Source of the DNA: a phage
Sequence record: PZ445530.1
Length of the DNA: 64,000 bases
Direction: 5' to 3' (one strand)
The translations under genes were made by a program, and so were the position numbers. Positions 2,561 to 58,439 of the stretch are shown here, in pieces. The notes beneath the pieces were generated by a model. The model saw nothing but the letters and a program-made list of their open reading frames with translations. It did no database searches and had not been told where the DNA came from. Numbering within the stretch: position 1 is the first letter of the stretch; every line of letters starts with the position of its first letter.

Positions 2561-3601
2561 ATGTCAAAACCTAGTTTTCCATTAGAGATTTGGGCAGAGG
2601 AGGATCAGGTTCTGCCTAACACCCACAGACAGAACAGGCTACGCCCGATTGATGATTTGTGGAGAAAAGGTTGGGATCTTGGTCAAAAGCCCTCATGTGA
2701 AGAACTTAACTATATTTTCAATATGCTCGGGACTTGGGCAAAATACATCGCTGACGAGCAGATCCCCGCTCAAGAAGGCCGTTATCTGGTACGTGATAAT
2801 AACTTGAGTGATCTTTTGAACATTCCTGTTGCCCGTAGAAACCTTGGGATTATTACTAAGGAAGAGGCAGACGCCAGGTATGTAAAAGTTACAGGTGATA
2901 CAATGACAGGCCCATTGGGTTTGCAACGTATCAACTTTAAAGCTGCCGAGTCAGATAAGGCTTGGATAGAGACAACTATTGGCCCAGATAAGACAACTCT
3001 CGACTTTGGGTTAAGTGATAATACCGGGTCGTTTGATGATGGTGGTACATCTACAGTGGATGCGTTCCGTTGGAGATTCCAGCCAACTCAGCCGGATATT
3101 AATCCAGAGTTCACTTTGATGTACCTTAACGCGATCACGGCTAACCGTGCGCTGTTGAAAGTGGTAGGCAATGTTGAAGTTGTCGATAACATGAGGTGCA
3201 ATAACCTTACTATCAGCAATACAGCGACATTCACCAACTGTAATGTGGCTAGTCAGTTGACGGCTGGGTCAGTGTATGTTAATGGTGGTGCAAGTTGTGA
3301 CAGTATGGTTGTAAGAAGCCAGCACTGTGTTGTCGGTAACAGAAATGTGGTTCGCTCTGTGAACGGAGTGACGGCTAACGGTAACGGTGATGTAACGATC
3401 ACTATCCCGCAGACAGGTGTGCAAGACATCAGAATCGGTGCAAGACTTGTGGACGGAGTTTCTGAATCTCCAATCCGCAACGGCTACGTTGTCACAGGCT
3501 GGCATTTCGGTGACAAAAAAGAGATGCGTGGTTCAACCTACTGGGCAGGACCTTTACAAAAACTTGTAAATGGTCAATGGATCACTGTTAATTATGCATA
3601 G
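2561..3601 (+). CDS. tail fibre protein, paralog A (346 aa)
   Basis: RBS caggag before ATG; shares PLEIWA..., DGFRWRFQP, LNAITANRA, RNVVRxVNG and C-terminal QKLVNGQWIT(V/I)xYA with ORF 4616-5659; followed by a Tfa-like chaperone gene. Confidence 0.65.
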   Translation: MSKPSFPLEIWAEEDQVLPNTHRQNRLRPIDDLWRKGWDLGQKPSCEELNYIFNMLGTWAKYIADEQIPAQEGRYLVRDNNLSDLLNIPVARRNLGIITKEEADARYVKVTGDTMTGPLGLQRINFKAAESDKAWIETTIGPDKTTLDFGLSDNTGSFDDGGTSTVDAFRWRFQPTQPDINPEFTLMYLNAITANRALLKVVGNVEVVDNMRCNNLTISNTATFTNCNVASQLTAGSVYVNGGASCDSMVVRSQHCVVGNRNVVRSVNGVTANGNGDVTITIPQTGVQDIRIGARLVDGVSESPIRNGYVVTGWHFGDKKEMRGSTYWAGPLQKLVNGQWITVNYA

Positions 3602-3615
3602 ATCGGAGGACTAGC

Positions 3616-4200
3616 ATGAAAATACTTCAAGAGTTTAAACTTTACCAACCGGGATCTGGCGAATACCGCACCAACAAGGAAACCAAGGAGCTGACCCCTC
3701 AAGAGGTTGAGGATTACACAGCATGCACTGGGTATTTTTTACGTAATGATGATGGCGATTGGTATGTGCAGTCACGAACATTACGACAAGAAAATCCGGG
3801 GTGTATCTTCCTACTTGTTGACGAGAAGGGAATTCTTAAGACATCTACAGAAGAACCTGATGCCTTATGGCCTGCTCCAGGTCTTCGTGTGGTTATCGCC
3901 AAAAAAGAAGAGGTACCAGAAAACATTATGCTTCACCACGACGCTTTGCGTTTAGTTGGTGATGAATTTGTCACAGACAATGAATTCTTTGTTCAACAGG
4001 CAGAGGGTGTCATAGAGACAGAACTTGCTTGGGCTACTGCTAGAATTGGTGCCTATCAAGACATGATTGACCTTGAATATGATCTTACTGATGACCAGAA
4101 ACGTAACATCAGAGATTTGAAAATGTACAGGGTAAAACTTCTTGAAATAGATACATCTAAAGCCCCTGACATTTTCTTCCCGGAGCGACCTACCCTCTAA
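3616..4200 (+). CDS. tail fibre assembly protein (lambda Tfa-like)
   Basis: C-terminus YRVKLLEIDTSKAPDIFFPERP closely matches lambda Tfa C-terminus [22 protein letters not shown] (recalled from memory); positioned directly after a fibre gene. Confidence 0.65.
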   Translation: MKILQEFKLYQPGSGEYRTNKETKELTPQEVEDYTACTGYFLRNDDGDWYVQSRTLRQENPGCIFLLVDEKGILKTSTEEPDALWPAPGLRVVIAKKEEVPENIMLHHDALRLVGDEFVTDNEFFVQQAEGVIETELAWATARIGAYQDMIDLEYDLTDDQKRNIRDLKMYRVKLLEIDTSKAPDIFFPERPTL

Positions 4201-19331: not shown

Positions 19332-20126
19332 TTATTTAACGTGTTTGAAAATACCTGCCAACTCGGTCATTGTCATGCGGGTGGTCTTCATAAGATCTGT
19401 CATAGCTTTCTCCATAATTGGAGATACTACCATAAAGTTTCCTTTAGTGAAACCTTTATTCCAGTCGGTCACCAACAGGGGTTTAAGTCCAGCTCCAAGA
19501 CGTTCACCAGTTAAAGCACAGCATTTGCGAATATACGAACTCTTAAATTGGCTGAACGACAGATCAACTTTCATACCTACATCGTAGAACGTTTGACAAT
19601 AGAAAGTGTAAGCTTTGGCAATCTCAACATCATCAGGTAGTGCAGGAACCTCTTCTGTAAGCTCCTCTTCGACCTCCTGAGTCTCTTTTTCCTCTTCATG
19701 CACCTGTTGCGTCATTTCTTCAATCTCTTCTGTGATAGGCTCGTTTACAATGTCGGAAATGTGCTTCTTGGGTGCACGATAAGTAACTTTAGACATCGGT
19801 AGCATATCTTCCTCCTCTTCTTCGTCAAAGAGTGCTAGTTTATCCTCTTCCGTTCCATATTGCAAGATGAAATCTTCAAAAGTATAATCACCTTTCAATT
19901 TCTCCATACGCTCTTCGCTCAGGTGGAGCATCATCTGCTGGACAATTTTTCGATCAGTTTCGTCTTTAATCAAGACTGCAGTCTTTTTATCTACCAGACA
20001 GTCCTTTAGAGAGTTGCATCTCAATCCCACCACACAACAGTTATCAACCGCATAAGGACCTTCATCATCTATCCGCTCCAGAGATGGGTAGAAAGGATTC
20101 CCCAGCCCGTTTTCATCTGTGTGCAT
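19332..20126 (-). CDS. acidic hypothetical protein (264 aa; possible internal start at 19796)
   Basis: Glu-rich central region; contains internal MSKVTYRA encoded by a 27-nt sequence identical to the start of gene 21639-21995. Confidence 0.5.
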   Translation of the reverse strand: MHTDENGLGNPFYPSLERIDDEGPYAVDNCCVVGLRCNSLKDCLVDKKTAVLIKDETDRKIVQQMMLHLSEERMEKLKGDYTFEDFILQYGTEEDKLALFDEEEEEDMLPMSKVTYRAPKKHISDIVNEPITEEIEEMTQQVHEEEKETQEVEEELTEEVPALPDDVEIAKAYTFYCQTFYDVGMKVDLSFSQFKSSYIRKCCALTGERLGAGLKPLLVTDWNKGFTKGNFMVVSPIMEKAMTDLMKTTRMTMTELAGIFKHVK

Positions 20127-47086: not shown

Positions 47087-47397
47087 TACTTGAAAATTCC
47101 TGGCATATCAAGTGTAAGGGGGATTTCTAAAATGGATTTCCTCCTTTTGATATTTCACCGGGCTGGATATTTTAAAATTCTTAGAAAATCAGAAAATGGA
47201 TCGAAAACTAAAATGGATTTTTCAGAGTAGGCGCGACAAGCTGAATAACTCATCCTATCGTTTGCACCATATTCCAGGCCACCATTATAGATTTTCCACA
47301 CATGCTAACCTCCCTCTACTAGAACTTCCTCCACTTGCCCTTAACCTTCTATGGTAACAATCTAACCACTATCTTGAAGTTGCGGTGCAGCTTTCCA

Positions 47398-47481
47398 AGT
47401 ACTCGATCTGTTTTTCATTTCATGGCTTGGATTTTCTGAAAATTTTTCTCGATAAATTTCTCAGTACTCGATCTGTTTTTC
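47398..47481. repeat. tandem direct repeat (19-nt perfect core AGTACTCGATCTGTTTTTC, 2 copies) within ORF-free region
   Basis: Core at 47398-47416 and 47463-47481, each followed by GGATTTTCTG(A/G)AAAT-like sequence; AAATGGATTT motif recurs 47129-47575. Confidence 0.6.
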
Positions 47482-47690
47482 GTTTTCTGAATCGGATTTT
47501 CTGGAAATCGTTCCGGATCTCGACCTGAAATTTTTGGGGACGAAATCGATTTTTCGTTTTCAGAAATGGATTTTTAAAATTTCTATATGGGAATATTTTA
47601 TGGGATACTGTTTTATAGGAAATTGTTACGGAGGGTAATTAGCATGCTAATTAAATTTATTAAATGCGAGGAGTTCTCATTTAGAATTTT

Positions 47691-47900
47691 GAATGATAAT
47701 CATTCTCGTTTGCAGAATAACGGGCAGGCCCGGTGATTGTCTCCCGGCCCCTGTTGCCCCGGCTTGTTATTATAGTATCACACAGGACAAAGAAAGCAAG
47801 GATTTTTTGCATAAATTTTTAAATGATAATGATAACCGTTCTCATTTTATGCAGCGCCCATCCCCGGTGGTTGTCTTCCCCGTCACCGGTGCCTGCCGTC
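47691..47900. repeat. pair of imperfect ~65-bp direct repeats (AATGATAAT...TGCAG...CCCGGTG(A/G)TTGTCT)
   Basis: Shared ordered blocks at 47691-47760 and 47820-47890. Confidence 0.4.
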
Positions 47901-48114
47901 CTTTCGATAGGTATATTGTGCCACCTGGCGGGGCCGCTGTCAACACTTTTCAAAAAATTTTTCTAACCTGATGCGCTAACCGCTGCAACCTGGCGGGGCC
48001 AGCCTGGCAGGACCTAACTGACCAGGTAGGAGAGAATGAAGGCTTGTAAACCTGGTGGGCCTATGCTATAGGACAGGTAACAATTGAAGAGGAGGTACAA
48101 AAATAAAAGGTAAT

Positions 48115-48273: not shown

Positions 48274-48281
48274 AATAATTG

Positions 48282-48309
48282 TTGACAACCGGGGGAGTCC
48301 TGCTATTCT
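48282..48309 (+). promoter_or_regulatory. early-type sigma70-like promoter (cassette 1)
   Basis: TTGACA - 16 bp - TATTCT; CA-rich leader and purine-rich SD before ATG 48362. Confidence 0.5.
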
Positions 48310-48361
48310 TACCCTACAAGGTGAACAACACCGCACTAACTAGTAAAGAGGATAAAAAATC

Positions 48362-48559
48362 ATGAACGCATACGGAATCAAAGTACGTCGCAACACTCGC
48401 CAGGTGGTCACCGATCAAGTGGTTTGCCTGGTGGATGTAACCATCAACAACGGGCAAGGCCTTTATAAATTTCGTCGCGGTCATAGCTATACCCTGCAAC
48501 AGCTTAATCGTTGCGCCCTGACAAAAGGTCAGATCAATCACTGGTTTAATAAAAAATAA
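48362..48559 (+). CDS. small hypothetical protein (65 aa)
   Basis: ATG downstream of cassette promoter and SD gaggataaaa. Confidence 0.5.
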   Translation: MNAYGIKVRRNTRQVVTDQVVCLVDVTINNGQGLYKFRRGHSYTLQQLNRCALTKGQINHWFNKK

Positions 48560-48562
48560 GTA

Positions 48563-48591
48563 TTGACATACGCCCCGACACAAAATATACT
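48563..48591 (+). promoter_or_regulatory. early-type sigma70-like promoter (cassette 2)
   Basis: TTGACA - 17 bp - TATACT; CACAAAAGA leader; SD agaggataaaa. Confidence 0.55.
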
Positions 48592-48623
48592 GAAATCACA
48601 AAAGACACTAAGAGGATAAAATC

Positions 48624-49022
48624 ATGAAAACCACAACCTTTAATTTTGACAATGCCGACTTCTCTTTTTCTGATGTCAAGAACTGCCGCCGTGATCGTGG
48701 ATTTTACAAGGCTTATAATCTGGTTGGCCTGGACGATGATAATAATTTGCACGAAGTAGCGGAGATCCGGTACTATGCCGCCGCCAGCGGTAACACTAAC
48801 TACTGCGTTTTTTGGATACACGACAACAAGAACAATAAGTACGGTTATACTGGCGGCAAGGCGAGCGGTCACGGTTATGATAAAGCTAACGCAGCACTTG
48901 AGAGCGCATTAAATGCTATGGGGATCACTGCCAACGGCTGGATCTACGAAGAAGAGTTTTTGTCGGCACTTGCTGACCACCTAGGCTATAAAAAGCACAT
49001 TGTAACATGTGCCCACGAATAA
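48624..49022 (+). CDS. hypothetical protein (132 aa)
   Basis: ATG downstream of cassette. Confidence 0.5.
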   Translation: MKTTTFNFDNADFSFSDVKNCRRDRGFYKAYNLVGLDDDNNLHEVAEIRYYAAASGNTNYCVFWIHDNKNNKYGYTGGKASGHGYDKANAALESALNAMGITANGWIYEEEFLSALADHLGYKKHIVTCAHE

Positions 49023-49029
49023 AAAATTA

Positions 49030-49057
49030 TTGACACGCTGCAAAATTCAAGTAAACT
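49030..49057 (+). promoter_or_regulatory. early-type sigma70-like promoter (cassette 3) followed by 5' hairpin
   Basis: TTGACA - 16 bp - TAAACT; hairpin GGCGGG-GATGTTT-CCCGCC at 49068-49086; CACAAAGGAAAAAG leader. Confidence 0.55.
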
Positions 49058-49105
49058 AGACACAAAAGGCGGGGATGTTTCCCGCCAGCACAAAGGAAAA
49101 AGATC

Positions 49106-49510
49106 ATGAATAAGAACGTACGCCGCATCATGAACGAACTGGCAAACGATGAAAAAATTATTGACATGCATTTATTCAACATTTGCCGCCGTTGTGTAAC
49201 ATATAACAACCGCGCCGCAAAAGCGCGTGAGATGAACGCAAAAGGCACCTTAAAGCCATTCCAGGTGGTGGTAAAGGCCATTAAAGATGTAACTAATACG
49301 GCAAACCAGGTACAGGGGAACACCAACGAGAGTACCAATATTGATCCGGCTTACATCATGAAACGGATCCGGACCTGCAAGAACAAAGAGCAAGTGTATA
49401 ATATCATAGACTGGTTGGATTCTATGGGCGATGTGGTTTACAATAGGTTTTCTGCAGCTATCGAGATCCAGCTTGACAGGTTGGACGGTAAAGTACTGAA
49501 AACTTACTAA
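49106..49510 (+). CDS. hypothetical protein (134 aa)
   Basis: ATG downstream of cassette. Confidence 0.5.
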   Translation: MNKNVRRIMNELANDEKIIDMHLFNICRRCVTYNNRAAKAREMNAKGTLKPFQVVVKAIKDVTNTANQVQGNTNESTNIDPAYIMKRIRTCKNKEQVYNIIDWLDSMGDVVYNRFSAAIEIQLDRLDGKVLKTY

Positions 49511-49512
49511 GT

Positions 49513-49558
49513 TTATTTTTAGATGGCCTTGACTTCAGGGCCATCAATAAAGTAAACT
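49513..49558 (+). promoter_or_regulatory. palindrome-embedded promoter element, copy 1
   Basis: TTATTTTTA-GATGGCC-TTGACT-TCAG-GGCCATC-...-TAAACT: -35 inside loop of 7-bp inverted repeat, 18-bp spacer to -10. Confidence 0.5.
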
Positions 49559-49591
49559 AATCTCAACTAAGCGAAAAAAGGGGGCTTTAAG

Positions 49592-49711
49592 ATGAGCACT
49601 ACACGCCAATACACAAAGGTAACTATTATCGTTTGCGTTGTCGGTTACATCCTGGCGCAAATGTTAATGAGTAGCGCTAACAGTTTTGCAAAATTTTTCT
49701 TAAATTTTTAA
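49592..49711 (+). CDS. small hydrophobic protein (39 aa)
   Basis: ATG after aaagggggc; hydrophobic core VTIIVCVVGYILAQML; below track cutoff. Confidence 0.35.
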   Translation: MSTTRQYTKVTIIVCVVGYILAQMLMSSANSFAKFFLNF

Positions 49712-49712
49712 T

Positions 49713-49739
49713 TGACAAACTAACTTAGATCGATATACT
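49713..49739 (+). promoter_or_regulatory. early-type sigma70-like promoter (cassette 4) followed by 5' hairpin
   Basis: TTGACA - 15/16 bp - TATACT; hairpin GGGAA-AAC-TTCCC; CACACAAAAGGAGAAAA leader. Confidence 0.5.
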
Positions 49740-49790
49740 TAAACACGTAAACGGGAAAACTTCCCAGAGCACACAAAAGGAGAAAACACC

Positions 49791-50132
49791 ATGACTACTA
49801 TGACCGCCGCAGAAAAAGCTATGCAGATCGCCGCGCTGAAAAAACAGATCGCAGACCTTGAGAACAAGATCGACAACTTTGAAATCGACGAGGACAAGTA
49901 CGACGAAAACTATGATGAATGGTTAGACGAGATCTACGGCGAAATTATGATCGGAAACATTTCTTTTCTTCCGTCGCGTATCCTCAAGGAGCTAGATCCT
50001 ATCGCTTACCGCTGCGGATTTAGCGACTACATCGACAGCCTGGATATTGAGGAAGATGAAGAATACCAGGAACTACAGACAGAGTTAGAAGAAGCAAAAG
50101 AAGAGCTTGCGGAGCTGGAAGAAAACGAGTAA
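49791..50132 (+). CDS. acidic coiled-coil-like protein (113 aa)
   Basis: ATG downstream of cassette; Glu/Asp-rich. Confidence 0.5.
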   Translation: MTTMTAAEKAMQIAALKKQIADLENKIDNFEIDEDKYDENYDEWLDEIYGEIMIGNISFLPSRILKELDPIAYRCGFSDYIDSLDIEEDEEYQELQTELEEAKEELAELEENE

Positions 50133-50133
50133 G

Positions 50134-50179
50134 ATTATTTTTAGATGGCCTTGACTCCAGGGCCATCAATAAAGTAAAC
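50134..50179 (+). promoter_or_regulatory. palindrome-embedded promoter element, copy 2
   Basis: Same 46-bp element as 49513 with one loop substitution. Confidence 0.5.
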
Positions 50180-50221
50180 TTTATACTGTTAACACTGAAC
50201 TAATTCAGAGGAGTTAAAACC

Positions 50222-50467
50222 ATGGCAGCACTAATCACCAAATATTATGCCCCTACCAACACCAAAAGCGCCCGTATCATGGTAAAAGGCTTCGGACGTA
50301 AAAAGGTTTACACCTGGGATTATGCCTTAGACATGGAAGACAACTACACCAACGCGATGACCGATTTTATTAATGATCTGAACACGCGGATCTTGACAAA
50401 TTATAAAATTACCGATATTGCCTATATAGGGGAAGGCGGGATCTGTTTTGTCGGTATCGTCAAATAA
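50222..50467 (+). CDS. hypothetical protein (81 aa)
   Basis: RBS gaggagtt before ATG. Confidence 0.5.
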   Translation: MAALITKYYAPTNTKSARIMVKGFGRKKVYTWDYALDMEDNYTNAMTDFINDLNTRILTNYKITDIAYIGEGGICFVGIVK

Positions 50468-50542
50468 GCTGTTTTTTCGGTGGTCCTGGTAGCAGGGCCA
50501 TCTATAAAGATAGTTTATCAACACAATGAAAGGAGAAAGTAC

Positions 50543-50890
50543 ATGATCAGCGGGGCAAGTTTTATTATTGGCGCTATTGCTACGGCTTTAATTGTAAACA
50601 AGATCCAATCTAAAAACGAAAAAGAGAGCAACGCGCTCACAGAATACCCATTTTGGGTATTCAACGACAATGAAGACTACATTATCAAGTACAAGAATGA
50701 GAAGGGCGACCAGGTAACACCGCGACCGATCCCGGCCTACAAGATGCAAGAAACACTATACCGCCTAAAGGCTGGAGGCGCAAAAATCGTAGACTTTTGG
50801 GGATATGATTGCAAGGATCAGGAGGTTATAAAACGGCGTATCCGGGCTATTCAGGCCAATATTGAAGTTAGCAAGGGGGGGAATATATGA
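50543..50890 (+). CDS. membrane-anchored hypothetical protein (115 aa)
   Basis: ATG after aaaggagaaag; N-terminal hydrophobic segment; preceded by degenerate copy of palindromic element (about 50477-50510). Confidence 0.45.
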   Translation: MISGASFIIGAIATALIVNKIQSKNEKESNALTEYPFWVFNDNEDYIIKYKNEKGDQVTPRPIPAYKMQETLYRLKAGGAKIVDFWGYDCKDQEVIKRRIRAIQANIEVSKGGNI

Positions 50891-51084
50891 AGATTAATTT
50901 TGAGAAGATTGTAAAGCGATCTCATGATTCCGAAGAGCTGCCGGAACGACGCCAACGTAACAATAAACTGAATAAGCCAAAAAGATTTGGAAAGATCTGG
51001 CGAAATCATTATGATCGTAAATTGCCTGGCCTACTTTTGGAACGTGAACGACAGGCAGAACGATACCGCCATAAAGACAAATAA
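50887..51084 (+). CDS. small basic protein (65 aa)
   Basis: ATGA overlap; Arg/Lys-rich. Confidence 0.45.
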   Translation: MKINFEKIVKRSHDSEELPERRQRNNKLNKPKRFGKIWRNHYDRKLPGLLLERERQAERYRHKDK

Positions 51085-51094
51085 CAACCAACGC

Positions 51095-51120
51095 CCCCGC
51101 CATTGTGCGGGGCTTTTTAT
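51095..51120 (+). terminator. intrinsic terminator
   Basis: CCCCGC-CATTGT-GCGGGG hairpin followed by CTTTTTAT. Confidence 0.55.
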
Positions 51121-51242
51121 TTCTATCCTACGAATAGCGCCCCTGGTTGGCCCTGTAAGCGCCAAAAAGGCCCCACCTATGCAATCGCCCCCTTTAACCT
51201 GAAAACATCGCCCAGGGCCGTTTCATGGCGTTAAAAATATCA

Positions 51243-51270
51243 TTGACATCGTCAACAGGTTAGCTATACT
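51243..51270 (+). promoter_or_regulatory. early-type sigma70-like promoter (cassette 5)
   Basis: TTGACA - 16 bp - TATACT; SD gaaaggag. Confidence 0.55.
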
Positions 51271-51302
51271 AACCACATCAAAGAGAGAAAGGAGTAAACG
51301 CC

Positions 51303-51563
51303 ATGCGTAAATTAAAAAATTTTGATAAAGTTGATGTTGTCCTGAATAATTTTTACTACTGCAACAACAAGGCCATTTGGTGGCGTGATAGTTCCACCGA
51401 TAAAGTCAAGGCGCGCTTTCTCCAGGGGCACTGGCAAGGCCGCCCAGTGATTAAAATCATGGGGCAATTGGTAGCGTTTAAAAATTGCCGCCGTGTTGAT
51501 GACGTTGAGGAGATTTTAAACATTTTGCGCCACAATAATTTAAAAAATAGTGTTGACAAGTAA
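51303..51563 (+). CDS. hypothetical protein (86 aa)
   Basis: ATG downstream of cassette. Confidence 0.5.
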   Translation: MRKLKNFDKVDVVLNNFYYCNNKAIWWRDSSTDKVKARFLQGHWQGRPVIKIMGQLVAFKNCRRVDDVEEILNILRHNNLKNSVDK

Positions 51564-51580
51564 ATCTCAATAAGTATAAT
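51553..51580 (+). promoter_or_regulatory. early-type sigma70-like promoter (cassette 6) followed by 5' hairpin
   Basis: TTGACA - 16 bp - TATAAT; hairpin GGCGG-GAAAACTTA-CCGCC at 51591-51609; SD caggagaaaa before ATG 51638. Confidence 0.55.
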
Positions 51581-51637
51581 TAAACACACAGGCGGGAAAA
51601 CTTACCGCCACTAACAAAGAAAACAGGAGAAAATATC

Positions 51638-52262
51638 ATGACCACCGTTAACATTACCACAGGTTACAATTTATCTTTCGACGTGCTGACCGATGAACAA
51701 AAAAGAAAAAGCTATTGAAATGGTCCGCGAAAGAGAAGAACACAGCGGGGATAACTTTTTTGCAGAAAGTGTAATTGAAGACTACAAAGAACATATCTTT
51801 CCAGAGTATGGCCTTGAAGATACCAAGGTACATTGGTCCGGCTTTTGGTGCCAGGGCGACGGCGCGTCAATCAGTGCGGAAAACGTGGATTTAGAAAAAT
51901 TCTTGCGTAAAGTCAAGTCTCTGACTAAATTCCGCTCAATTCGTCACTTGTTCGGCACAATGCACGATGGCGAGCTATCCGCAAGTGTTGAGCGTGATCC
52001 ATATAGCCGCTATAGTCACGAAAACACTGTAAGCGGGTACATCGATACTACATGGCTAGACCTGACAGCCAAGCAAGAAAGTAAGGTTGAAGAGCTGGAA
52101 GAGTTGATCACCGAGAACGTACGGGAACTATCCCGCAAGGTTTACGTAGACCTGGAGCAAGCTTATCTTGAACAATTTACTACCGAAAACCTGATCGGCC
52201 TTATCGAGGCCAATGATTGGCGGTTTGATGTGGATGAATATGGAGAGATGAGTTTTTCATAA
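51638..52262 (+). CDS. hypothetical protein; frame interrupted after 26 codons at an A-rich tract (about 51699-51712), continuing in another frame as track ORF 51693-52262
   Basis: Cassette-positioned ATG at 51638 hits a stop after 26 codons; the long ORF resumes in a different frame within GAACAAAAAAGAAAAAGC and its own ATG lacks an SD. Confidence 0.4.
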
Positions 52263-52270
52263 ATAAAGTG

Positions 52271-52299
52271 TTGCAATAATCTAAAAACCTGCTATATTA
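52271..52299 (+). promoter_or_regulatory. early-type sigma70-like promoter (cassette 7) followed by 5' hairpin
   Basis: TTGCAA - 17 bp - TATATT; hairpin GGGGCAA-GACGT-TTGCCCC at 52307-52325; CACACAAAACAAAGAGGAAAA leader. Confidence 0.55.
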
Positions 52300-52352
52300 A
52301 AACTCAAGGGGCAAGACGTTTGCCCCCCACACAAAACAAAGAGGAAAACATC

Positions 52353-52733
52353 ATGAAAAACACTACTAAAGCTATTGACACCGTCATGTTTAACCTGGTT
52401 ACCTTTCGCGAGGATATGAAAGATCTTCCACGTGAAACAGTGTGCGATCACATTGAAAACTATCGCAAACTAATCAAAGAGTTGCCTTTAAAACGTGATC
52501 AGTATGCGGCTAACGCCATGCTTAATGCCATGATCAAAAAGATGATCCAGTGTGATTTAACTCTGGCCTATGACTATGCGGGTGGTCGTTTTGCAGTATA
52601 CAATCAGCCCGTGCCCGGTATGGGCACCACCGAAGAATTGCACGCGTTAAATCTGAAGCAAGATGTATGGGATAACATGCCCCGCGTGGTGGTGTGGGCA
52701 GAAAGCGGAAAGATTTACGGCGATAATTTTTAA
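52353..52733 (+). CDS. hypothetical protein (126 aa)
   Basis: ATG at cassette position. Confidence 0.5.
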   Translation: MKNTTKAIDTVMFNLVTFREDMKDLPRETVCDHIENYRKLIKELPLKRDQYAANAMLNAMIKKMIQCDLTLAYDYAGGRFAVYNQPVPGMGTTEELHALNLKQDVWDNMPRVVVWAESGKIYGDNF

Positions 52734-52736
52734 TCA

Positions 52737-52768
52737 GGTAACAGGCGGCATATTTGCCGCCTTATTGT
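52737..52768 (+). terminator. putative intrinsic terminator
   Basis: AGGCGGCA-TATTT-GCCGCCT hairpin followed by TATTGTT. Confidence 0.4.
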
Positions 52769-52797
52769 TAAACAGAGCTGCAAAAGAGGTACATAGA

Positions 52798-53169
52798 ATG
52801 GAATTTATTATTTTGGCTGTAGTAGTTGCCTTGTTCAACGCCTGGATAGCTGGCAAAATAGGTAGATCCGCTTTTCTATGGTTTGTTATATCTATTTTCC
52901 TGGGAGTGGTTGCAACCATTGTACTAGTTATCCTTGCAATTGTTGACAAGGATAATAATAAGAAGGGTAAAGTATTTTCCGACCTGTATGACGCCCAAAC
53001 TTTTGTTAACGCCTATTATAGTGATCTTCCGGTCTCCTTGCGCTGCAGCCTGGCGCAACAAGTTTTTGATGAGGCTAAAACCAGAGATCAAGCCCATGAG
53101 ATATGTTTAACTGAGGCGGATCGCCTATTTGAGAGGAATAGAAAATATGTGGGCCAGCCGTTTAAATAA
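52798..53169 (+). CDS. membrane protein (123 aa)
   Basis: ATG after aaagaggt; two hydrophobic segments near N-terminus. Confidence 0.45.
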   Translation: MEFIILAVVVALFNAWIAGKIGRSAFLWFVISIFLGVVATIVLVILAIVDKDNNKKGKVFSDLYDAQTFVNAYYSDLPVSLRCSLAQQVFDEAKTRDQAHEICLTEADRLFERNRKYVGQPFK

Positions 53170-53392
53170 TACCACGTTAATTAATCCCTTTAGTGAAGAT
53201 TTGAAGCCAGCCGCCTGGCGTGATGGATTCAATAACGAACGCTTTATTTTCAAGCCTGATCTTGAGGAATTTTATAACAATGGATCGAACAACAGCGGAG
53301 ATAATTTTTCTTGGGATGTGCGTGGTGATGGTACTCCTGGGGGCCATTGTAAACCACGTCACTACTACCAGGAGGAAAGGGGGAGACGATGA
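53147..53392 (+). CDS. hypothetical protein (81 aa)
   Basis: ATG after gagaggaatag. Confidence 0.4.
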   Translation: MWASRLNNTTLINPFSEDLKPAAWRDGFNNERFIFKPDLEEFYNNGSNNSGDNFSWDVRGDGTPGGHCKPRHYYQEERGRR

Positions 53393-53508
53393 CAACCAAG
53401 GATAAGCCCCGTACCGATAAGGCGCGCCGGGTTATGGTATGGCTTGAGATCATCGCCCTTGAAATATTGCTAGGCGTAGGGATGTACTTTATCGCTGTAA
53501 GTAACTAA
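53389..53508 (+). CDS. small membrane protein (39 aa)
   Basis: Strong RBS caggaggaaaggggg; hydrophobic C-terminal half; ATGA overlap. Confidence 0.45.
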   Translation: MTTKDKPRTDKARRVMVWLEIIALEILLGVGMYFIAVSN

Positions 53509-53512
53509 GAAC

Positions 53513-53540
53513 GGCCCCCGATCATGGGGGCCTATCTTTT
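53513..53540 (+). terminator. intrinsic terminator
   Basis: GGCCCCC-GATCAT-GGGGGCC hairpin followed by TATCTTTTT. Confidence 0.6.
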
Positions 53541-53563
53541 TAAAAAATTTCCCTTTCAGGGTG

Positions 53564-53591
53564 TTGCAATCCGGTCCGCAATATGGATAAT
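53564..53591 (+). promoter_or_regulatory. early-type sigma70-like promoter (cassette 8) followed by 5' hairpin
   Basis: TTGCAA - 16 bp - GATAAT; hairpin CGGGGA-AACA-TCCCCG at 53601-53616; CACACAAACAAAAG leader. Confidence 0.5.
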
Positions 53592-53650
53592 AACAATCAA
53601 CGGGGAAACATCCCCGCCACACAAACAAAAGCCCGAAGAGGAGAAAGAAG

Positions 53651-53850
53651 ATGAGCAACAATATCCGCGTTATTAACTTCAAAAAGAAGAAAAAATTGCC
53701 GTGCTGATTGACGGTCAAGAAATCTTCAAGGGCGACTATGAAGATCATCAAACGGCGATTAGTATCACTCGCGTGATTGGTTATCATAATTTCTACCCCC
53801 AAGGCGCTGAGGCAGCAGTTAAACGAATCAAAGAGATTGTAGGCCTGTAA
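53651..53850 (+). CDS. small hypothetical protein; frame interrupted at an A-rich tract (about 53683-53696)
   Basis: Cassette ATG at 53651 hits a stop after 17 codons; a 51-codon ORF continues in another frame through stop at 53848-53850; one extra A in the run would fuse them. Confidence 0.35.
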
Positions 53851-53852
53851 AA

Positions 53853-53899
53853 TTTATTTTTAGATGGCCTTGACTTCAGGGCCATCGATAAAGTAAATT
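53853..53899 (+). promoter_or_regulatory. palindrome-embedded promoter element, copy 3
   Basis: TTATTTTTA-GATGGCC-TTGACT-TCAG-GGCCATC-...-TAAATT. Confidence 0.5.
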
Positions 53900-53943
53900 T
53901 AAACCCTGTTAAAATACCACGCAGTTAACAAGGAGTGATAGAC

Positions 53944-54243
53944 ATGTTTATCCAGGCTAATAATCTTTATTTCTTTGATGGTCAGATCGTAGATGGTGTG
54001 GAAGTGGAGATCACCGGGTGCCCTGGTGGTCAGGCTATGACTTTCCGGAATAATGCCTTTGATGATTCTCATATCGTTATGAGAATGGAAGTTACGAAGC
54101 TGGACGACAAGAAAACACTTATTGACTATTCTGTGAAAGATCATCCAGACTACCACATGATCTATGGTGATTTGTGCATTGTTGACCGTGACAAGGTGGG
54201 CGGCATTGTGATCGCTATTGTGAACGATGTTTTCTCAAACTAA
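53944..54243 (+). CDS. hypothetical protein (99 aa)
   Basis: ATG after caaggagtga. Confidence 0.5.
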   Translation: MFIQANNLYFFDGQIVDGVEVEITGCPGGQAMTFRNNAFDDSHIVMRMEVTKLDDKKTLIDYSVKDHPDYHMIYGDLCIVDRDKVGGIVIAIVNDVFSN

Positions 54244-54260
54244 TTTCAGCAGGTGATTTT

Positions 54261-54611
54261 ATGAAAGTAAAACTATATTACCTTAATGAGCTTAACCCCC
54301 TTGCCCAGGTCCGCGCCCTGGCTAATACCTTGATTTGTGAGAAATCTGTATATTGTGTTGAGCTTAACGCCATGCGTGAACGTCTCAAAGGTGGTTACTT
54401 TGACATCCATGCTGCAATCAACGGCCTGAATATGGAATTTATCCGCTTACGTAACAACAGCCGGAATCTGGCAAGAATGGAACAAGATCCGGCCCACCTT
54501 CGTAAGCTGGTTATTGAAAATCATCTGATGTTCAATGCCGAGGGTGATTATTACCATTTTCACCGCAAACGTTGGTACCGTGGCGGCAATACAAGCAAGA
54601 ATGCAAAATAA
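54261..54611 (+). CDS. hypothetical protein (116 aa)
   Basis: ORF in track. Confidence 0.5.
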   Translation: MKVKLYYLNELNPLAQVRALANTLICEKSVYCVELNAMRERLKGGYFDIHAAINGLNMEFIRLRNNSRNLARMEQDPAHLRKLVIENHLMFNAEGDYYHFHRKRWYRGGNTSKNAK

Positions 54612-54645
54612 GGCCCCTAGCAGGGCCTGCAGCGATATAATCACA

Positions 54646-54680
54646 TAAAGGCTATGCGGTTGCATGGCCTTTATTATTTT
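54646..54680 (+). terminator. putative intrinsic terminator
   Basis: AAAGGCTATGC-GGTT-GCATGGCCTTT imperfect hairpin followed by ATTATTTT. Confidence 0.45.
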
Positions 54681-54729
54681 AGCGTTACAGCGACCCCTAA
54701 GGCGCTTAAAAAATTTTTTAAAGAAGTAC

Positions 54730-54757
54730 TTGCATCAAGCCCTACAGTATGGATAAT
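54730..54757 (+). promoter_or_regulatory. early-type sigma70-like promoter (cassette 9) followed by 5' hairpin
   Basis: TTGCAT - 16 bp - GATAAT; G/C hairpin at 54766-54780; SD taggag. Confidence 0.5.
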
Positions 54758-54813
54758 AGGACGTGTCGGGGGGCGGCCCCCAATCATTAACCGGATAGAT
54801 AGGAGTTAAAACC

Positions 54814-55098
54814 ATGGCTATTGTTACCGCTGGCGATGTAGTAGAAATGGAAGCAAAATACTTAAAAGCGGGTATGCATATCCTACGCAACGATCTTGAA
54901 CTGGTCCTGACAATGGTTGACTATAACCCAGGGCAAGATTATCCAAGTGTTGACTACTTTTTTGAGTATGTTGATGAAGAATTAAAAGAGGATGAGGCTT
55001 ATCAGGGCGAATTCTGTAATTTCTTTTGCTCTGATGAGGTTGTAAAAGTTATCTATCAACCTGGCGTACCTTTCCCGCTGCACGCTATCAATAAATAA
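54814..55098 (+). CDS. hypothetical protein (94 aa)
   Basis: ATG downstream of cassette. Confidence 0.5.
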   Translation: MAIVTAGDVVEMEAKYLKAGMHILRNDLELVLTMVDYNPGQDYPSVDYFFEYVDEELKEDEAYQGEFCNFFCSDEVVKVIYQPGVPFPLHAINK

Positions 55099-55154
55099 AC
55101 CTGGCGGGGCCGAAAAGGCCCCCCAATTATGAAAATAAAGAGAGGCAAATCATC

Positions 55155-55388
55155 ATGATGGAACAAATTAAACGCGCCGAGGCTATTAATGGCAACGTGA
55201 TCTATTTTGTCAGCAAAAACGAAAAAGGCGTACCCTATGCGGCTGTAATAGTACAGCCTGACGGCGATTATTGGTGCACTGTGTACGGCGCTTATTCTTT
55301 TGGGCGTCCAGTGCATGATAAAATTTTGAAAGTAGCGAACCCTACCGGGAAAAATATTACAGCAGAAAAATTTTTTGAAAAGTGTTGA
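55155..55388 (+). CDS. hypothetical protein (77 aa)
   Basis: RBS aaagagagg. Confidence 0.5.
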   Translation: MMEQIKRAEAINGNVIYFVSKNEKGVPYAAVIVQPDGDYWCTVYGAYSFGRPVHDKILKVANPTGKNITAEKFFEKC

Positions 55389-55412
55389 CATGACCTTATA
55401 AGACTGTAGAAT
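55385..55412 (+). promoter_or_regulatory. early-type sigma70-like promoter (cassette 10) followed by 5' hairpin
   Basis: TTGACA - 16 bp - TAGAAT; hairpin GGGGGGC-AACAA-GCCCCCC at 55423-55441; CACCAACCACAAAGAGGATAAAAA leader. Confidence 0.55.
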
Positions 55413-55466
55413 ATAAATCAAAGGGGGGCAACAAGCCCCCCACCAACCACAAAGAGGATAAAAATC

Positions 55467-55646
55467 ATGGCTATTATTGCAAAGACTGAGATCGTAGGCT
55501 TAGATTCTATTCTCCTCGCATATGAGGAAGCTATAGAAATGTATGTGGTTTCCTATGGTGAGTATATTCGTGAATATAAATCTATTGATCTGGCTTTTGA
55601 ATGTTATATTCGCCAGGTAAATAAAGCATATGATGATTATCGTTAA
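55467..55646 (+). CDS. small hypothetical protein (59 aa)
   Basis: ATG at cassette position; one codon below track cutoff. Confidence 0.45.
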   Translation: MAIIAKTEIVGLDSILLAYEEAIEMYVVSYGEYIREYKSIDLAFECYIRQVNKAYDDYR

Positions 55647-55652
55647 AATAGT

Positions 55653-55680
55653 TTGACAACAATTACAAATCGGGTAGAAT
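55653..55680 (+). promoter_or_regulatory. early-type sigma70-like promoter (cassette 11) followed by 5' hairpin
   Basis: TTGACA - 16 bp - TAGAAT; GTATTTCGTAG then hairpin GCGGCA-ATGA-TGCCGC. Confidence 0.55.
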
Positions 55681-55731
55681 GTATTTCGTAGGGCGGCAAT
55701 GATGCCGCTCACAACTAAAAGAGAGATCATC

Positions 55732-55926
55732 ATGGCGCTTAAAAAACTAACAAGCAATACTCGTTGGGATGAAATCGACGGGGAAGTTTACATTTTTGCC
55801 CGTAAACCAGGGGATCAAAAATGGTCAAAGGCTTTTACTTGCCATCCTGCAACAATAGATCTGATAAAAAGTCAAGGACTACGTGAAGCAGTAGCAAGAA
55901 GTTTACTGATCCCTTGTAAAAATTAG
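55732..55926 (+). CDS. small hypothetical protein (64 aa)
   Basis: ATG after aaaagagag; track start 55699 lies inside the leader hairpin. Confidence 0.45.
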   Translation: MALKKLTSNTRWDEIDGEVYIFARKPGDQKWSKAFTCHPATIDLIKSQGLREAVARSLLIPCKN

Positions 55927-55927
55927 T

Positions 55928-55955
55928 TTGACAACAGTCAACAATCTGGTAAAGT
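55928..55955 (+). promoter_or_regulatory. early-type sigma70-like promoter (cassette 12) followed by 5' hairpin
   Basis: TTGACA - 16 bp - TAAAGT; hairpin GCGGGA-ATACT-TCCCGC; leader CCATTAATGAGGGTA shared with cassette 13. Confidence 0.55.
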
Positions 55956-56003
55956 GTACTACATAGCGCGGGAATACTTCCCGCCATTAATGAGGGTAAT
56001 TTA

Positions 56004-56141
56004 ATGAAAACTTTCAACGCAACAGCCTCGACAATTGGTTATATTATTACAGTACAAGCCGTGGATCTGGTAGCAGCAGCAAACAAGATTAAAAAGATGA
56101 TTCCGCCAGGTAGTGAATTTTCCGTTTGGGAAGTAAAATAA
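56004..56141 (+). CDS. small hypothetical protein (45 aa)
   Basis: ATG after tgagggtaattta; below track cutoff. Confidence 0.4.
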   Translation: MKTFNATASTIGYIITVQAVDLVAAANKIKKMIPPGSEFSVWEVK

Positions 56142-56144
56142 ATC

Positions 56145-56172
56145 TTGACAATAATTTATTACTTGATAGACT
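56145..56172 (+). promoter_or_regulatory. early-type sigma70-like promoter (cassette 13)
   Basis: TTGACA - 16 bp - TAGACT; GTATTTCGTAG...CCATTAATGAGGGTA leader duplicated from cassettes 11/12. Confidence 0.55.
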
Positions 56173-56224
56173 GTATTTCGTAGTGCGGGGAAATAAGGCA
56201 ACGCCCATTAATGAGGGTAGAATC

Positions 56225-56329
56225 ATGTTAGAGAAAATTTTCACGGTTGTAGTAGTTGGCCTGGCATTATCGGTTGGATGGGTTGCAACTATGGCTAACA
56301 TGATCCTATCTTCCCACGGTATCGGTTAA
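56225..56329 (+). CDS. small hydrophobic peptide (34 aa)
   Basis: ATG at cassette position; hydrophobic FTVVVVGLALSVGWVATMANMIL. Confidence 0.4.
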   Translation: MLEKIFTVVVVGLALSVGWVATMANMILSSHGIG

Positions 56330-56330
56330 G

Positions 56331-57529: not shown

Positions 57530-57791
57530 ATAAGGCAACTATGCAAACGAATGGCATGGCGCGACGGAGTCGCGACATAATATAAAAGCAGTAACCATCA
57601 CCCCCGTGATAGTTTGTCTGCAAACTATTAATCAGATCATAGTTGCCTTGTATTTAGTTAATCATGACATAACAAGCAAGGCAACTATAGATCTGCTAAT
57701 AGTTGCCCTGCTTTTATATTATGTCATGCTAATTATAATCAGTGCGATTATTGTCATGTATAATTATTGTCATGCAAACGAATGGCATGGC
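57530..57791. repeat. repeat cluster: 20-nt perfect direct repeat ATGCAAACGAATGGCATGGC (57541-57560, 57772-57791) and four alternating AGTTGCC/GGCAACT copies
   Basis: Direct repeat 231 bp apart; AGTTGCC-family at about 57534, 57641, 57680, 57701; palindrome CGCGAC-GGA-GTCGCG at 57562-57576. Confidence 0.6.
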
Positions 57792-57890: not shown

Positions 57891-58439
57891 TGTCATGTTG
57901 TGTCAGTTAGGTCACATTATGTCAGACAAGTTTTTCTCCTCTTTGTCAAGTGCTGCATGAAAAATTTACAAACTGGTATGGTAGCATTTTTGCGGCCCTG
58001 TTTACATTCAGTAATGTATGTATAATCCTTGTTGTGTGGGCGTTTAGACGTCTAGACGGTTGGAAGTCCACAGGTCAATATCTAATCTATCGGCTGCTAA
58101 CTATATCCCACACAAATAGCAAGAAATATGATTGTTATATGCGTAAACTGTAACTCATGTTATCAATCCCTGTATGGATCGCCAGTGGTGCGCATAATGG
58201 GTATTATGTTAAATTGCCCGTAATGATAACTATTCTCACAATGATAGGTATTCTCATTCATCCACATAAAATAGGTTGCAAATGTTGTGCCACTGTGTGA
58301 ACGGCCTGGCCTATTAATTTGCCTCACTGCCTTGATATTTGAGAATTGTTATAAGAATGAGAAGTATTCCCATTTCGTCCGCCTGGCAGCACTCCTGTAG
58401 GTCAGGTCAAAATCGTGGTAGAATTGGGCCTGTTCAGAT

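Follow-up and report, generated by a model that had tools for sequence, protein, structure and literature searches.

Promoter and stem-loop cassettes in an island of tiny genes of an rV5-like phage

Promoter-early stem-loop (PeSL) cassettes have been described in the T4-type phages RB49/phi1, PST, and nt-1 (Arbiol et al. 2010, PMC2839356; Comeau et al. 2014, PMC4122927). In print, their stem-loops have been interpreted as terminators or attenuators and not as stabilisers. One PeSL stem-loop of RB49/phi1, placed between a promoter and lacZ, cut expression as rrnB T1 did (PMC2839356), and a crossover was mapped in RB49 to the loop of such a stem-loop. In the literature that we searched, these cassettes were described only in T4-type phages, and none of the papers that mention them deals with rV5-like phages. 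Here, we analyzed a phage sequence of 64,000 nucleotides (PZ445530.1; this whole stretch is called the window), in which an island at 48,280-56,330 carries 13 cassettes composed of a promoter, in most cases a G/C hairpin, a leader, and a Shine-Dalgarno sequence (SD) in front of tiny genes.

The island is 92-97% identical to about 250 Vequintavirus records in GenBank (rV5-like E. coli myoviruses of about 137 kb), the closest being phage A51.2 (96.6% identity). By these matches, the source phage is a Vequintavirus, an rV5-like myovirus. The island cassettes share with the PeSL cassettes an A/T-rich tract, a near-consensus sigma-70 promoter, a stem-loop that is often of the Gn-loop-Cn form, an SD, and an ATG. 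In both cases, many copies lie among the ORFans of a hyperplastic region, and the junctions of indels or replacements between close relatives fall within the cassettes. RB49 leaders, past the -10 box, are A/C-rich like those of the island. Judged from these shared parts, the island is best described as a PeSL-type cassette system in a phage lineage that is new for such cassettes, and in which the hairpin is placed differently.

Anatomy of the cassettes

The 13 near-consensus promoters listed in an initial annotation of this DNA were all found on the + strand. They are of the sigma-70 type, lie between 48,282 and 56,227, and are each located 30-60 nt 5' of an SD and ATG. The -35 boxes read TTGACA (10/13), TTGCAA (2/13), or TTGCAT (1/13), and the spacer is 16 bp in 12 promoters and 17 bp in the remaining one; the range of 15-17 bp that had been proposed therefore holds for 16 and 17 bp, and no promoter has a 15-bp spacer. 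At least 10/12 consensus positions are matched by 10/13 cassette promoters, and sites at this level within the island number 12 on the + strand and none on the - strand. The 24 nt 5' of the -35 boxes are 76% A+T (range 67-92%) and resemble UP elements.

A G/C hairpin, which the same annotation described as usually following the promoter, is present in 10/13 cassettes and begins 10-13 nt past the -10 hexamer. When strict criteria were applied (a perfectly paired stem, 5 bp or longer and with no fewer than four G:C pairs), 8/13 cassettes retained a hairpin, for a chance per site of 1.5-3.6% (binomial P = 3e-12 with the hairpin density of the window, 3e-9 with that of the island). No strict hairpin was found at the 42 other promoter-like sites of the window (0/42), and all of its hairpin-bearing cassettes fall within 49.0-56.2 kb. 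The stems of cassettes 3, 4, 6, 8, and 12 and of the type found in phage phi92 have a GCGGGAA/TTCCCGC half-site in common. Those of other cassettes are unrelated (GGGGGGC/GCCCCCC, GGGGCAA/TTGCCCC, GGGGAGAG/CTCTCCCC), and loop length ranges from 3 to 9 nt.

Between the hairpin and the SD region, the sequence is composed of 49% A, 29% C, 12% G, and 10% T, and its A+C content is 78% as compared to 54% in control leaders (P = 8e-8). The leaders, first described as CA-rich, are thus A/C-rich but not strictly CA-rich: they are A-rich with C, and those of cassettes 9, 12, and 13 fit the pattern poorly. The ATG follows the end of the hairpin by 19-34 nt. Positions 7-8 past the -10 box form a pyrimidine-purine step in 9/10 hairpin cassettes, and a predicted start at this Y7-R8 step would leave 2-5 unpaired nt ahead of the stem. 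Cassettes 11-13, already read as duplicates in the initial annotation, are indeed near-duplicates with 68-77% identity over 56 nt (repeat family D2). A search of Rfam 15 gave no match at the gathering score in the window, and only chance-level matches at E up to 1 in 47.0-57.5 kb. The anatomy of promoter, 5'-proximal hairpin, A/C-rich leader, and SD is confirmed as real and non-random. The individual cassettes are as follows:

Cassette 1: 48282..48364, + strand; TTGACA-16-TATTCT; no hairpin; A/C-rich leader and SD; ATG at 48362.
Cassette 2: 48563..48626, + strand; TTGACA-17-TATACT; no hairpin; leader and SD; ATG at 48624.
Cassette 3: 49030..49108, + strand; TTGACA-16-TAAACT; hairpin at 49068-49086 (GGCGGGGATGTTTCCCGCC), 11 nt past the -10 box; ATG at 49106.
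Cassette 4: 49712..49793, + strand; TTGACA-16-TATACT; weak hairpin at 49753-49765 (GGGAAAACTTCCC); ATG at 49791.
Cassette 5: 51243..51305, + strand; TTGACA-16-TATACT; no hairpin; ATG at 51303.
Cassette 6: 51553..51640, + strand; TTGACA-16-TATAAT (12/12 consensus positions); hairpin at 51591-51609; ATG at 51638.
Cassette 7: 52271..52355, + strand; TTGCAA-16-TATATT; hairpin at 52308-52326 (GGGGCAAGACGTTTGCCCC); ATG at 52353.
Cassette 8: 53564..53653, + strand; TTGCAA-16-GATAAT; hairpin at 53601-53616; ATG at 53651; directly 3' of the terminator at 53513-53532.
Cassette 9: 54730..54816, + strand; TTGCAT-16-GATAAT; hairpin at 54768-54781 (GGGGGGCGGCCCCC); ATG at 54814.
Cassette 10: 55385..55469, + strand; TTGACA-16-TAGAAT; hairpin at 55423-55441 (GGGGGGCAACAAGCCCCCC); ATG at 55467.
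Cassette 11: 55653..55734, + strand; TTGACA-16-TAGAAT; hairpin at 55691-55710 (GGGCGGCAATGATGCCGCTC), of the phi92/phAPEC8 type; ATG at 55732; a recurrent recombination junction.
Cassette 12: 55928..56006, + strand; TTGACA-16-TAAAGT; hairpin at 55968-55984; ATG at 56004.
Cassette 13: 56145..56227, + strand; TTGACA-16-TAGACT; degenerate hairpin at 56183-56206, intact in relatives; ATG at 56225.

Conservation and gene shuffling

Hairpin conservation in relatives was observed: orthologous cassettes in eight other Vequintavirus loci keep the position of the hairpin, while loops and some stem positions vary. Despite the loop variation, the orthologous hairpins retain -5 to -17 kcal/mol. Compensatory changes were detected in two cassettes. 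In cassette 3 of MiataMamis, the inner stem is swapped (GGCGGTTGA...TCAGCCGCC) with pairing preserved, and the GGGGG/CCCCC stem of cassette 9 is changed to GGAGG/CCTCC in relatives, with a G.U intermediate in other genomes.

The same architecture, far more stereotyped and found before nearly every small gene, is present in the Stephanstirmvirinae (phi92, ESCO25, phAPEC8, and two IMG/VR contigs). Their cassette reads TTGACA-16-TAAGAT GTATCACATAG GGGCGGCAAT(A/G)GTGCCGCTC ACAACAGAAGAGAGA...ATG, and cassettes 11-13 of the window are of this type. Phage Av-05 (Avunavirus) encodes cassettes with unrelated stems at the identical offset, and unrelated hairpin sequences are located at this same offset in the window, Av-05, phi92, and ESCO25. 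When the window region was scanned together with 13 fetched loci, 92 hairpin cassettes were recovered, with an offset of 11-12 nt in 60 of them and of 10-13 nt in 80. When one phi92 cassette was used as a query, matches were found at 690 places in 156 phage records; GenBank phage records were used since IMG/VR searches yielded too few loci (5 and 4) to study covariation on a large scale. By comparison of these sequences, the cassette anatomy is positionally conserved across four phage genera, though the hairpin sequences are unrelated. A comparison of the minimum free energies of + and - strand hairpins (+ more stable, P = 1e-9) was discarded as circular, as the set had been chosen by + strand stability and included many false promoters.

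When the window was compared to the eight relatives, nine separate indels or replacements were identified; of their 18 ends, 14 lie inside cassettes, and these make up 22% of the island (P = 8e-7). In EdH4, a three-way alignment revealed that the upstream half of cassette 11 is joined to cassette 12 in the shared TAGTTTGACAAC (-35 box), with one gene gone. In Typing phage 14, cassette 11 is fused to cassette 13 within TGTATTTCGTAG.GCGG, that is, in the initial transcribed sequence and 5' arm, with the loss of two genes. Two genes are also gone from an IMG/VR contig in which two copies of another island repeat, D1a and D1b (described below), are joined at a junction inside the repeat, and MiataMamis-type relatives carry an insertion of about 590 bp inside the promoter of cassette 5. 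Within one genome, paralogous cassettes have loop variants peculiar to it in common (ATGG in seven of them in ESCO25, ATAG in three in phi92), which points to concerted evolution or recent amplification. Exchange seems to extend across subfamilies. The module containing cassettes 10-13 (55150-56330) is 82-89% identical at the nucleotide level to the Stephanstirmvirinae phages phi92 and ESCO25; no nucleotide similarity to those phages could be detected in the rest of the island. The stretch therefore looks like a recently exchanged module.

Since the junctions of insertions, deletions, and replacements lie inside them, the cassettes provide portable homology for modular gene shuffling. From these comparisons, we consider it very likely that the three features hold together: a cassette anatomy with tight phasing, its presence in four genera, and a use of the cassettes as portable homology, with junctions falling within them.

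Possible roles of the stem-loops

Each cassette would constitute an autonomous unit for the expression of one to three tiny genes. The near-consensus sigma-70 promoter with its A/T-rich, UP-like tract would be read by the unmodified host RNA polymerase, and the G/C stem-loop is predicted to begin at about +3 to +5 of the transcript. The A/C-rich, G/T-poor leader is unable to pair with the hairpin arms and leaves no room for ATG, GTG, or TTG. Stable 5'-terminal stem-loops protect E. coli mRNAs from 5'-end-dependent decay by RppH/RNase E, and RNase E scans from the 5' end of the RNA. The island hairpin would act mainly on its own mRNA, where sequestration of the 5' end would slow this decay, and, as 19-34 nt separate the end of the hairpin from the ATG, a bound ribosome would shield most of what is left of the leader. 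We tentatively favor this role, a 5'-end stabiliser of the cassette's own mRNA with the ribosome covering the rest of the short leader, at a likelihood that we put a little short of even. A translational benefit of the A/C tract would be plausible. A role in the cassette's own transcript, rather than in upstream termination, is suggested by the offset of the hairpin, which is fixed to the promoter and not to the upstream stop codon.

Several points weigh against a stabilising role. That the hairpin lies within the transcript is deduced from the 7-8 nt that usually separate the -10 box from the start. Cassettes 1, 2, and 5 have no hairpin, and stems are weakened in cassettes 6 and 13 of the window, in cassette 10 of rV5_ev168, and in cassette 12 of Alma; together, these cases indicate that selection is not strict. 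In a strand-symmetric count of transition mismatches in bona fide cassette stems, 13 G.T were found versus 10 A.C, several of the G.T being one inherited feature, which gives no sign that the + strand RNA is the selected form. The tight phasing could partly reflect the common descent of duplicated cassettes and not a constraint. To these must be added the lacZ result obtained with the RB49/phi1 stem-loop and, on the - strand, the 5-6 T found in the 8 nt after the stem in 5/10 hairpins (1-4 T in the remainder).

The lacZ result is an argument for stem-loops that act as attenuators or terminators of upstream transcription, preventing its build-up along the array and insulating the modules. Such a role would also agree with two GenBank annotations, those of EdH4 (locus 3785-3803) and Alma (locus 3229-3253), in which hairpins corresponding to cassettes 3, 6, and 10 are labeled "terminator". 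A comparison with the four canonical intrinsic terminators of the island points the other way, as 0-3 T occur in the 8 nt after the cassette stems on the + strand versus 5-6 T at these terminators:

51095..51112, + strand; canonical intrinsic terminator; of the 8 nt that follow the stem, 6 are T.
52743..52762, + strand; canonical intrinsic terminator, with an SD and ATG (52798) directly after it and no promoter.
53513..53532, + strand; canonical intrinsic terminator, just upstream of cassette 8.
54645..54674, + strand; canonical intrinsic terminator, immediately upstream of cassette 9.

Cassettes 8 and 9 carry hairpins even though they directly follow such terminators. The hairpins are also located 3' of their own predicted start, where an efficient terminator would also stop the polymerase that initiated 3-5 nt upstream, and their offset is tied to the -10 box. 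We therefore hold attenuation to be unlikely. Beside the second terminator, we observed that a three-gene block (52798-53508) has its SD and ATG within 36 nt of the terminator and no recognisable promoter; it would depend on read-through.

An attenuator is also favored by D1, a second family of hairpin-bearing repeats, four copies of which are located directly after stop codons in the island. The family consensus is a T-run, a hairpin GATGGCCTTG-ACNN-CAGGGCCATC around a -35-like TTGAC, and then AATAAAGTAAAC:

D1a: 49508..49558, + strand; T-run, then a 10-bp hairpin GATGGCCTTG-ACTT-CAGGGCCATC (49522-49545) around the -35-like TTGACT, then AATAAAGTAAACT.
D1b: 50130..50180, + strand; 96% identity to D1a.
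D1c: 50465..50515, + strand; diverged (69%), with the hairpin kept through three one-sided G.U changes and the -35-like box lost.
D1d: 53849..53899, + strand; 92%.

Situated just past stop codons and either 5' of the -35 box or, as in RB49, covering it, these hairpins would exist only in read-through RNA from upstream. The D1 stem is fully paired (100%) in nine variants, and its four variable pairs all changed on one side through G.U. Such changes would be C.A mismatches on the other strand, so D1 looks like a + strand RNA structure.

The T-runs on the - strand raise another alternative, in which the hairpins are opposite-facing intrinsic terminators that stop antisense read-through before it reaches the early promoters, for example from the convergent minus-strand unit that lies past about 59.6 kb. 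In the scan, cassettes 3, 7, 8, and 10 appeared terminator-like on the - strand, the 5-6 T noted above fit this function, and a convergent minus-strand block is visible in the GC skew from about 60 kb on. However, the phi92/phAPEC8-type cassettes, including 11-13, have no T-run on the - strand (TACGAAAT, TATGTGAT) and nevertheless place the hairpin at the same offset. The T-run may also be a by-product of an A-rich initial transcribed sequence, and no strong minus-strand promoter was found within the island. This explanation appears improbable to us.

We give about the same low credence to the palindromes mattering as DNA only, as homology or cruciform-prone recombination sites that are selfish or hitch-hiking and have no role in RNA. 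Junctions in or beside the hairpin, the RB49 crossover in the loop of a stem-loop, the concerted evolution of paralogous cassettes, and the equal frequency of G.T and A.C mismatches would all be expected in that case. Crossovers are also found in the -35 box and in D1, though, so any shared stretch serves. Homology alone would leave the unrelated hairpins at an identical offset across cassettes and genera unexplained, and in the D1 stem the only substitutions tolerated are those that preserve + sense pairing.

Operators near +12, lacO-like and bound by a dimeric phage repressor of the early promoters, would suit the position relative to the start site and the half-site shared by cassettes 3, 4, 6, 8, and 12 and the phi92 type, but this reading is largely rejected and very improbable, as stem sequences differ among cassettes, symmetric double changes preserve pairing yet alter the would-be recognition sequence, and loops vary from 3 to 9 nt. 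Antitermination of the kind mediated by lambda nut (boxA/boxB) or HK022 put, which are likewise promoter-proximal RNA stem-loops in early phage transcripts, was rejected, as loops and flanks are not conserved, no boxA-like sequence is present, no Rfam match was obtained, and the cassettes have one short hairpin as opposed to the two of put.

If the stem-loop does stabilise its own mRNA, it might also be connected to RNase E in another way. T4 Srd stimulates RNase E against host mRNA, and the rV5 paper names an Srd homologue in rV5. In the window, a 264-aa open reading frame (ORF) at 19335-20126 on the - strand strongly matches the PHROG family "HNH endonuclease" and weakly matches the PHROG "decoy of host sigma70" (T4 Srd-like; E = 1.5e-5); it is probably this "Srd homologue", gp11 of rV5. 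The ORF is relevant to a possible effect of the phage on the activity of host RNase E or sigma-70. Should it have a T4-Srd-like activity, the 5' hairpin could be a "self" mark that, together with the ribosome-covered leader, exempts early phage mRNAs from the decay unleashed through the Srd-like protein. We regard this as a speculative and rather unlikely scenario; if true, phage and host RNA would be discriminated independently of sequence, through a portable cassette that drives gene shuffling as well. More generally, a stem-loop at the start of the mRNA would suggest that phages may standardise the 5'-end protection of early transcripts, possibly alongside phage-induced decay of host mRNA.

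Island genes, surroundings, and known systems

The island encodes 23 small ORFs (48362..56329, + strand), slightly fewer than the 25 or so first counted; their products are 34-134 aa, close to the 34-135 aa first given, plus one of 207 aa. As had been stated, they are almost entirely unannotatable: no island protein gave a Pfam match above threshold, every PHROG match was of "unknown function", and all 23 genes are ORFans. The proposal of a host-takeover or anti-defence island is unsupported, with zero proteins having a functional annotation. Two genes are frameshifted in this assembly. The 207-aa gene starting at 51638 has A6 at 51697-51702 versus A5 in naswa, the only fetched relative that matches the context pattern there, and the gene starting at 53651 (66 aa when intact) has A5 at 53681-53685 versus A6 in six relatives. 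Relatives have both genes in intact form. Both differences are probably homopolymer sequencing errors or recent inactivating mutations and not programmed frameshifts.

In rV5 numbering, the island genes correspond to about gp165-gp190 (from the BLAST labels of the Alma record) and lie near the distal end of a long unit, 10-1-238-164, which the rV5 paper proposed to be transcribed by the host polymerase. That paper listed 33 sigma-70 promoters and 20 terminators genome-wide and did not mention hairpins. In the window, the unit starts at divergent promoters near 20.37 kb (20368 on the - strand and 20382 on the + strand) and ends near 59.6 kb, where the GC skew flips and a convergent minus-strand block begins. 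Literature searches for transcriptomes of Vequintavirus or phi92-like phages found none. On balance, the island is somewhat more probably than otherwise the hyperplastic, ORFan-rich part of this long early, host-RNA-polymerase unit, organised by PeSL-type cassettes.

Other repeats were noted around the island. Upstream, about 1 kb (47090-48100) without a convincing ORF contains GGATTTT repeats, three direct repeats of about 65 bp (47389-47574), a minus-strand promoter-like site at 47943, and two Fur-box-like palindromes at 47689 (4 mismatches to GATAATGATAATCATTATC) and 47825 (3 mismatches), each followed by a G/C-rich structured segment. This stretch may be the "non-coding" box of the rV5 map and could be an origin or a source of small RNA; it has no Rfam match. 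The motif ACCTGGCGGGGCC occurs in three exact copies (47923, 47988, and 55099) and in five copies at no more than two mismatches, including 46920 (- strand) and 48227, versus 0.64 expected. Its copy at 55099 folds as a hairpin GGGGCCGAAAAGGCCCC between two island genes, with no promoter and no T-run. Downstream of the island are a direct repeat with 60-nt spacing, AACTAT..ATAGTTGCC.TG (57623-57716), and a Fur-box-like tandem AATGATAACTATTCTCAC of 1.9 copies (58222-58256).

Public annotations treat the cassette hairpins inconsistently, as "terminator" in some records and as a phage-specific promoter in others. Besides the terminator labels of EdH4 and Alma, there is the phAPEC8 record (locus 3504-3560), in which the 20-mer CATAGGGCGGCAATGGTGCC immediately follows a MEME host-type promoter and bears the label "putative promoter determined with PHIRE". 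These labels are automatic and mutually contradictory, and they recognise neither the composite cassette nor its fixed geometry. The cassettes are also compact natural expression units of about 80 bp that could be reused in E. coli.

Among systems outside phages, the closest are the 5'-terminal stem-loops of the ompA and papA 5' untranslated regions (UTRs), which Emory, Bouvet and Belasco reportedly described in 1992 (listed in PMC3997798) as stabilisers of E. coli mRNA. Like these and like synthetic 5' hairpin cassettes, the island cassettes combine a hairpin a few nt from the (here predicted) 5' end with a short leader and a strong ribosome-binding site. Unlike them, the island layout is used as a standard part, recurring 10 times within 8 kb and some 90 times over the relatives that were sampled.

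For the comparison with PeSL cassettes, the RB49 hyperplastic region was fetched and its intergenic spacers were folded. The RB49 stem-loop lies in the interval separating the -35 box from the -10 box (e.g., TTGACAGGGGATCGGTGATCCCCTATAAT) or over the -10 box; being inside the promoter, it is absent from the cassette's own mRNA, whereas the island hairpin, 10-13 nt past the -10 box, would be located inside the 5' UTR given the predicted start. This placement matches one of the five subclasses of Arbiol et al. and was seen in none of the RB49 cassettes folded, and the RB49 layout is followed in the island only by the four D1 elements. The spacer is 16 bp in the island versus 17 bp in PeSL cassettes. 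The lineages are unrelated as well, the cassettes described here belonging to the Vequintavirinae and Stephanstirmvirinae and not to the Straboviridae, with no homology beyond the promoter consensus. If confirmed, the occurrence of such cassettes in two further myovirus subfamilies, in four or more genera, would make promoter/stem-loop cassettes a general device for expressing and exchanging accessory genes, and not a peculiarity of T4-type phages.

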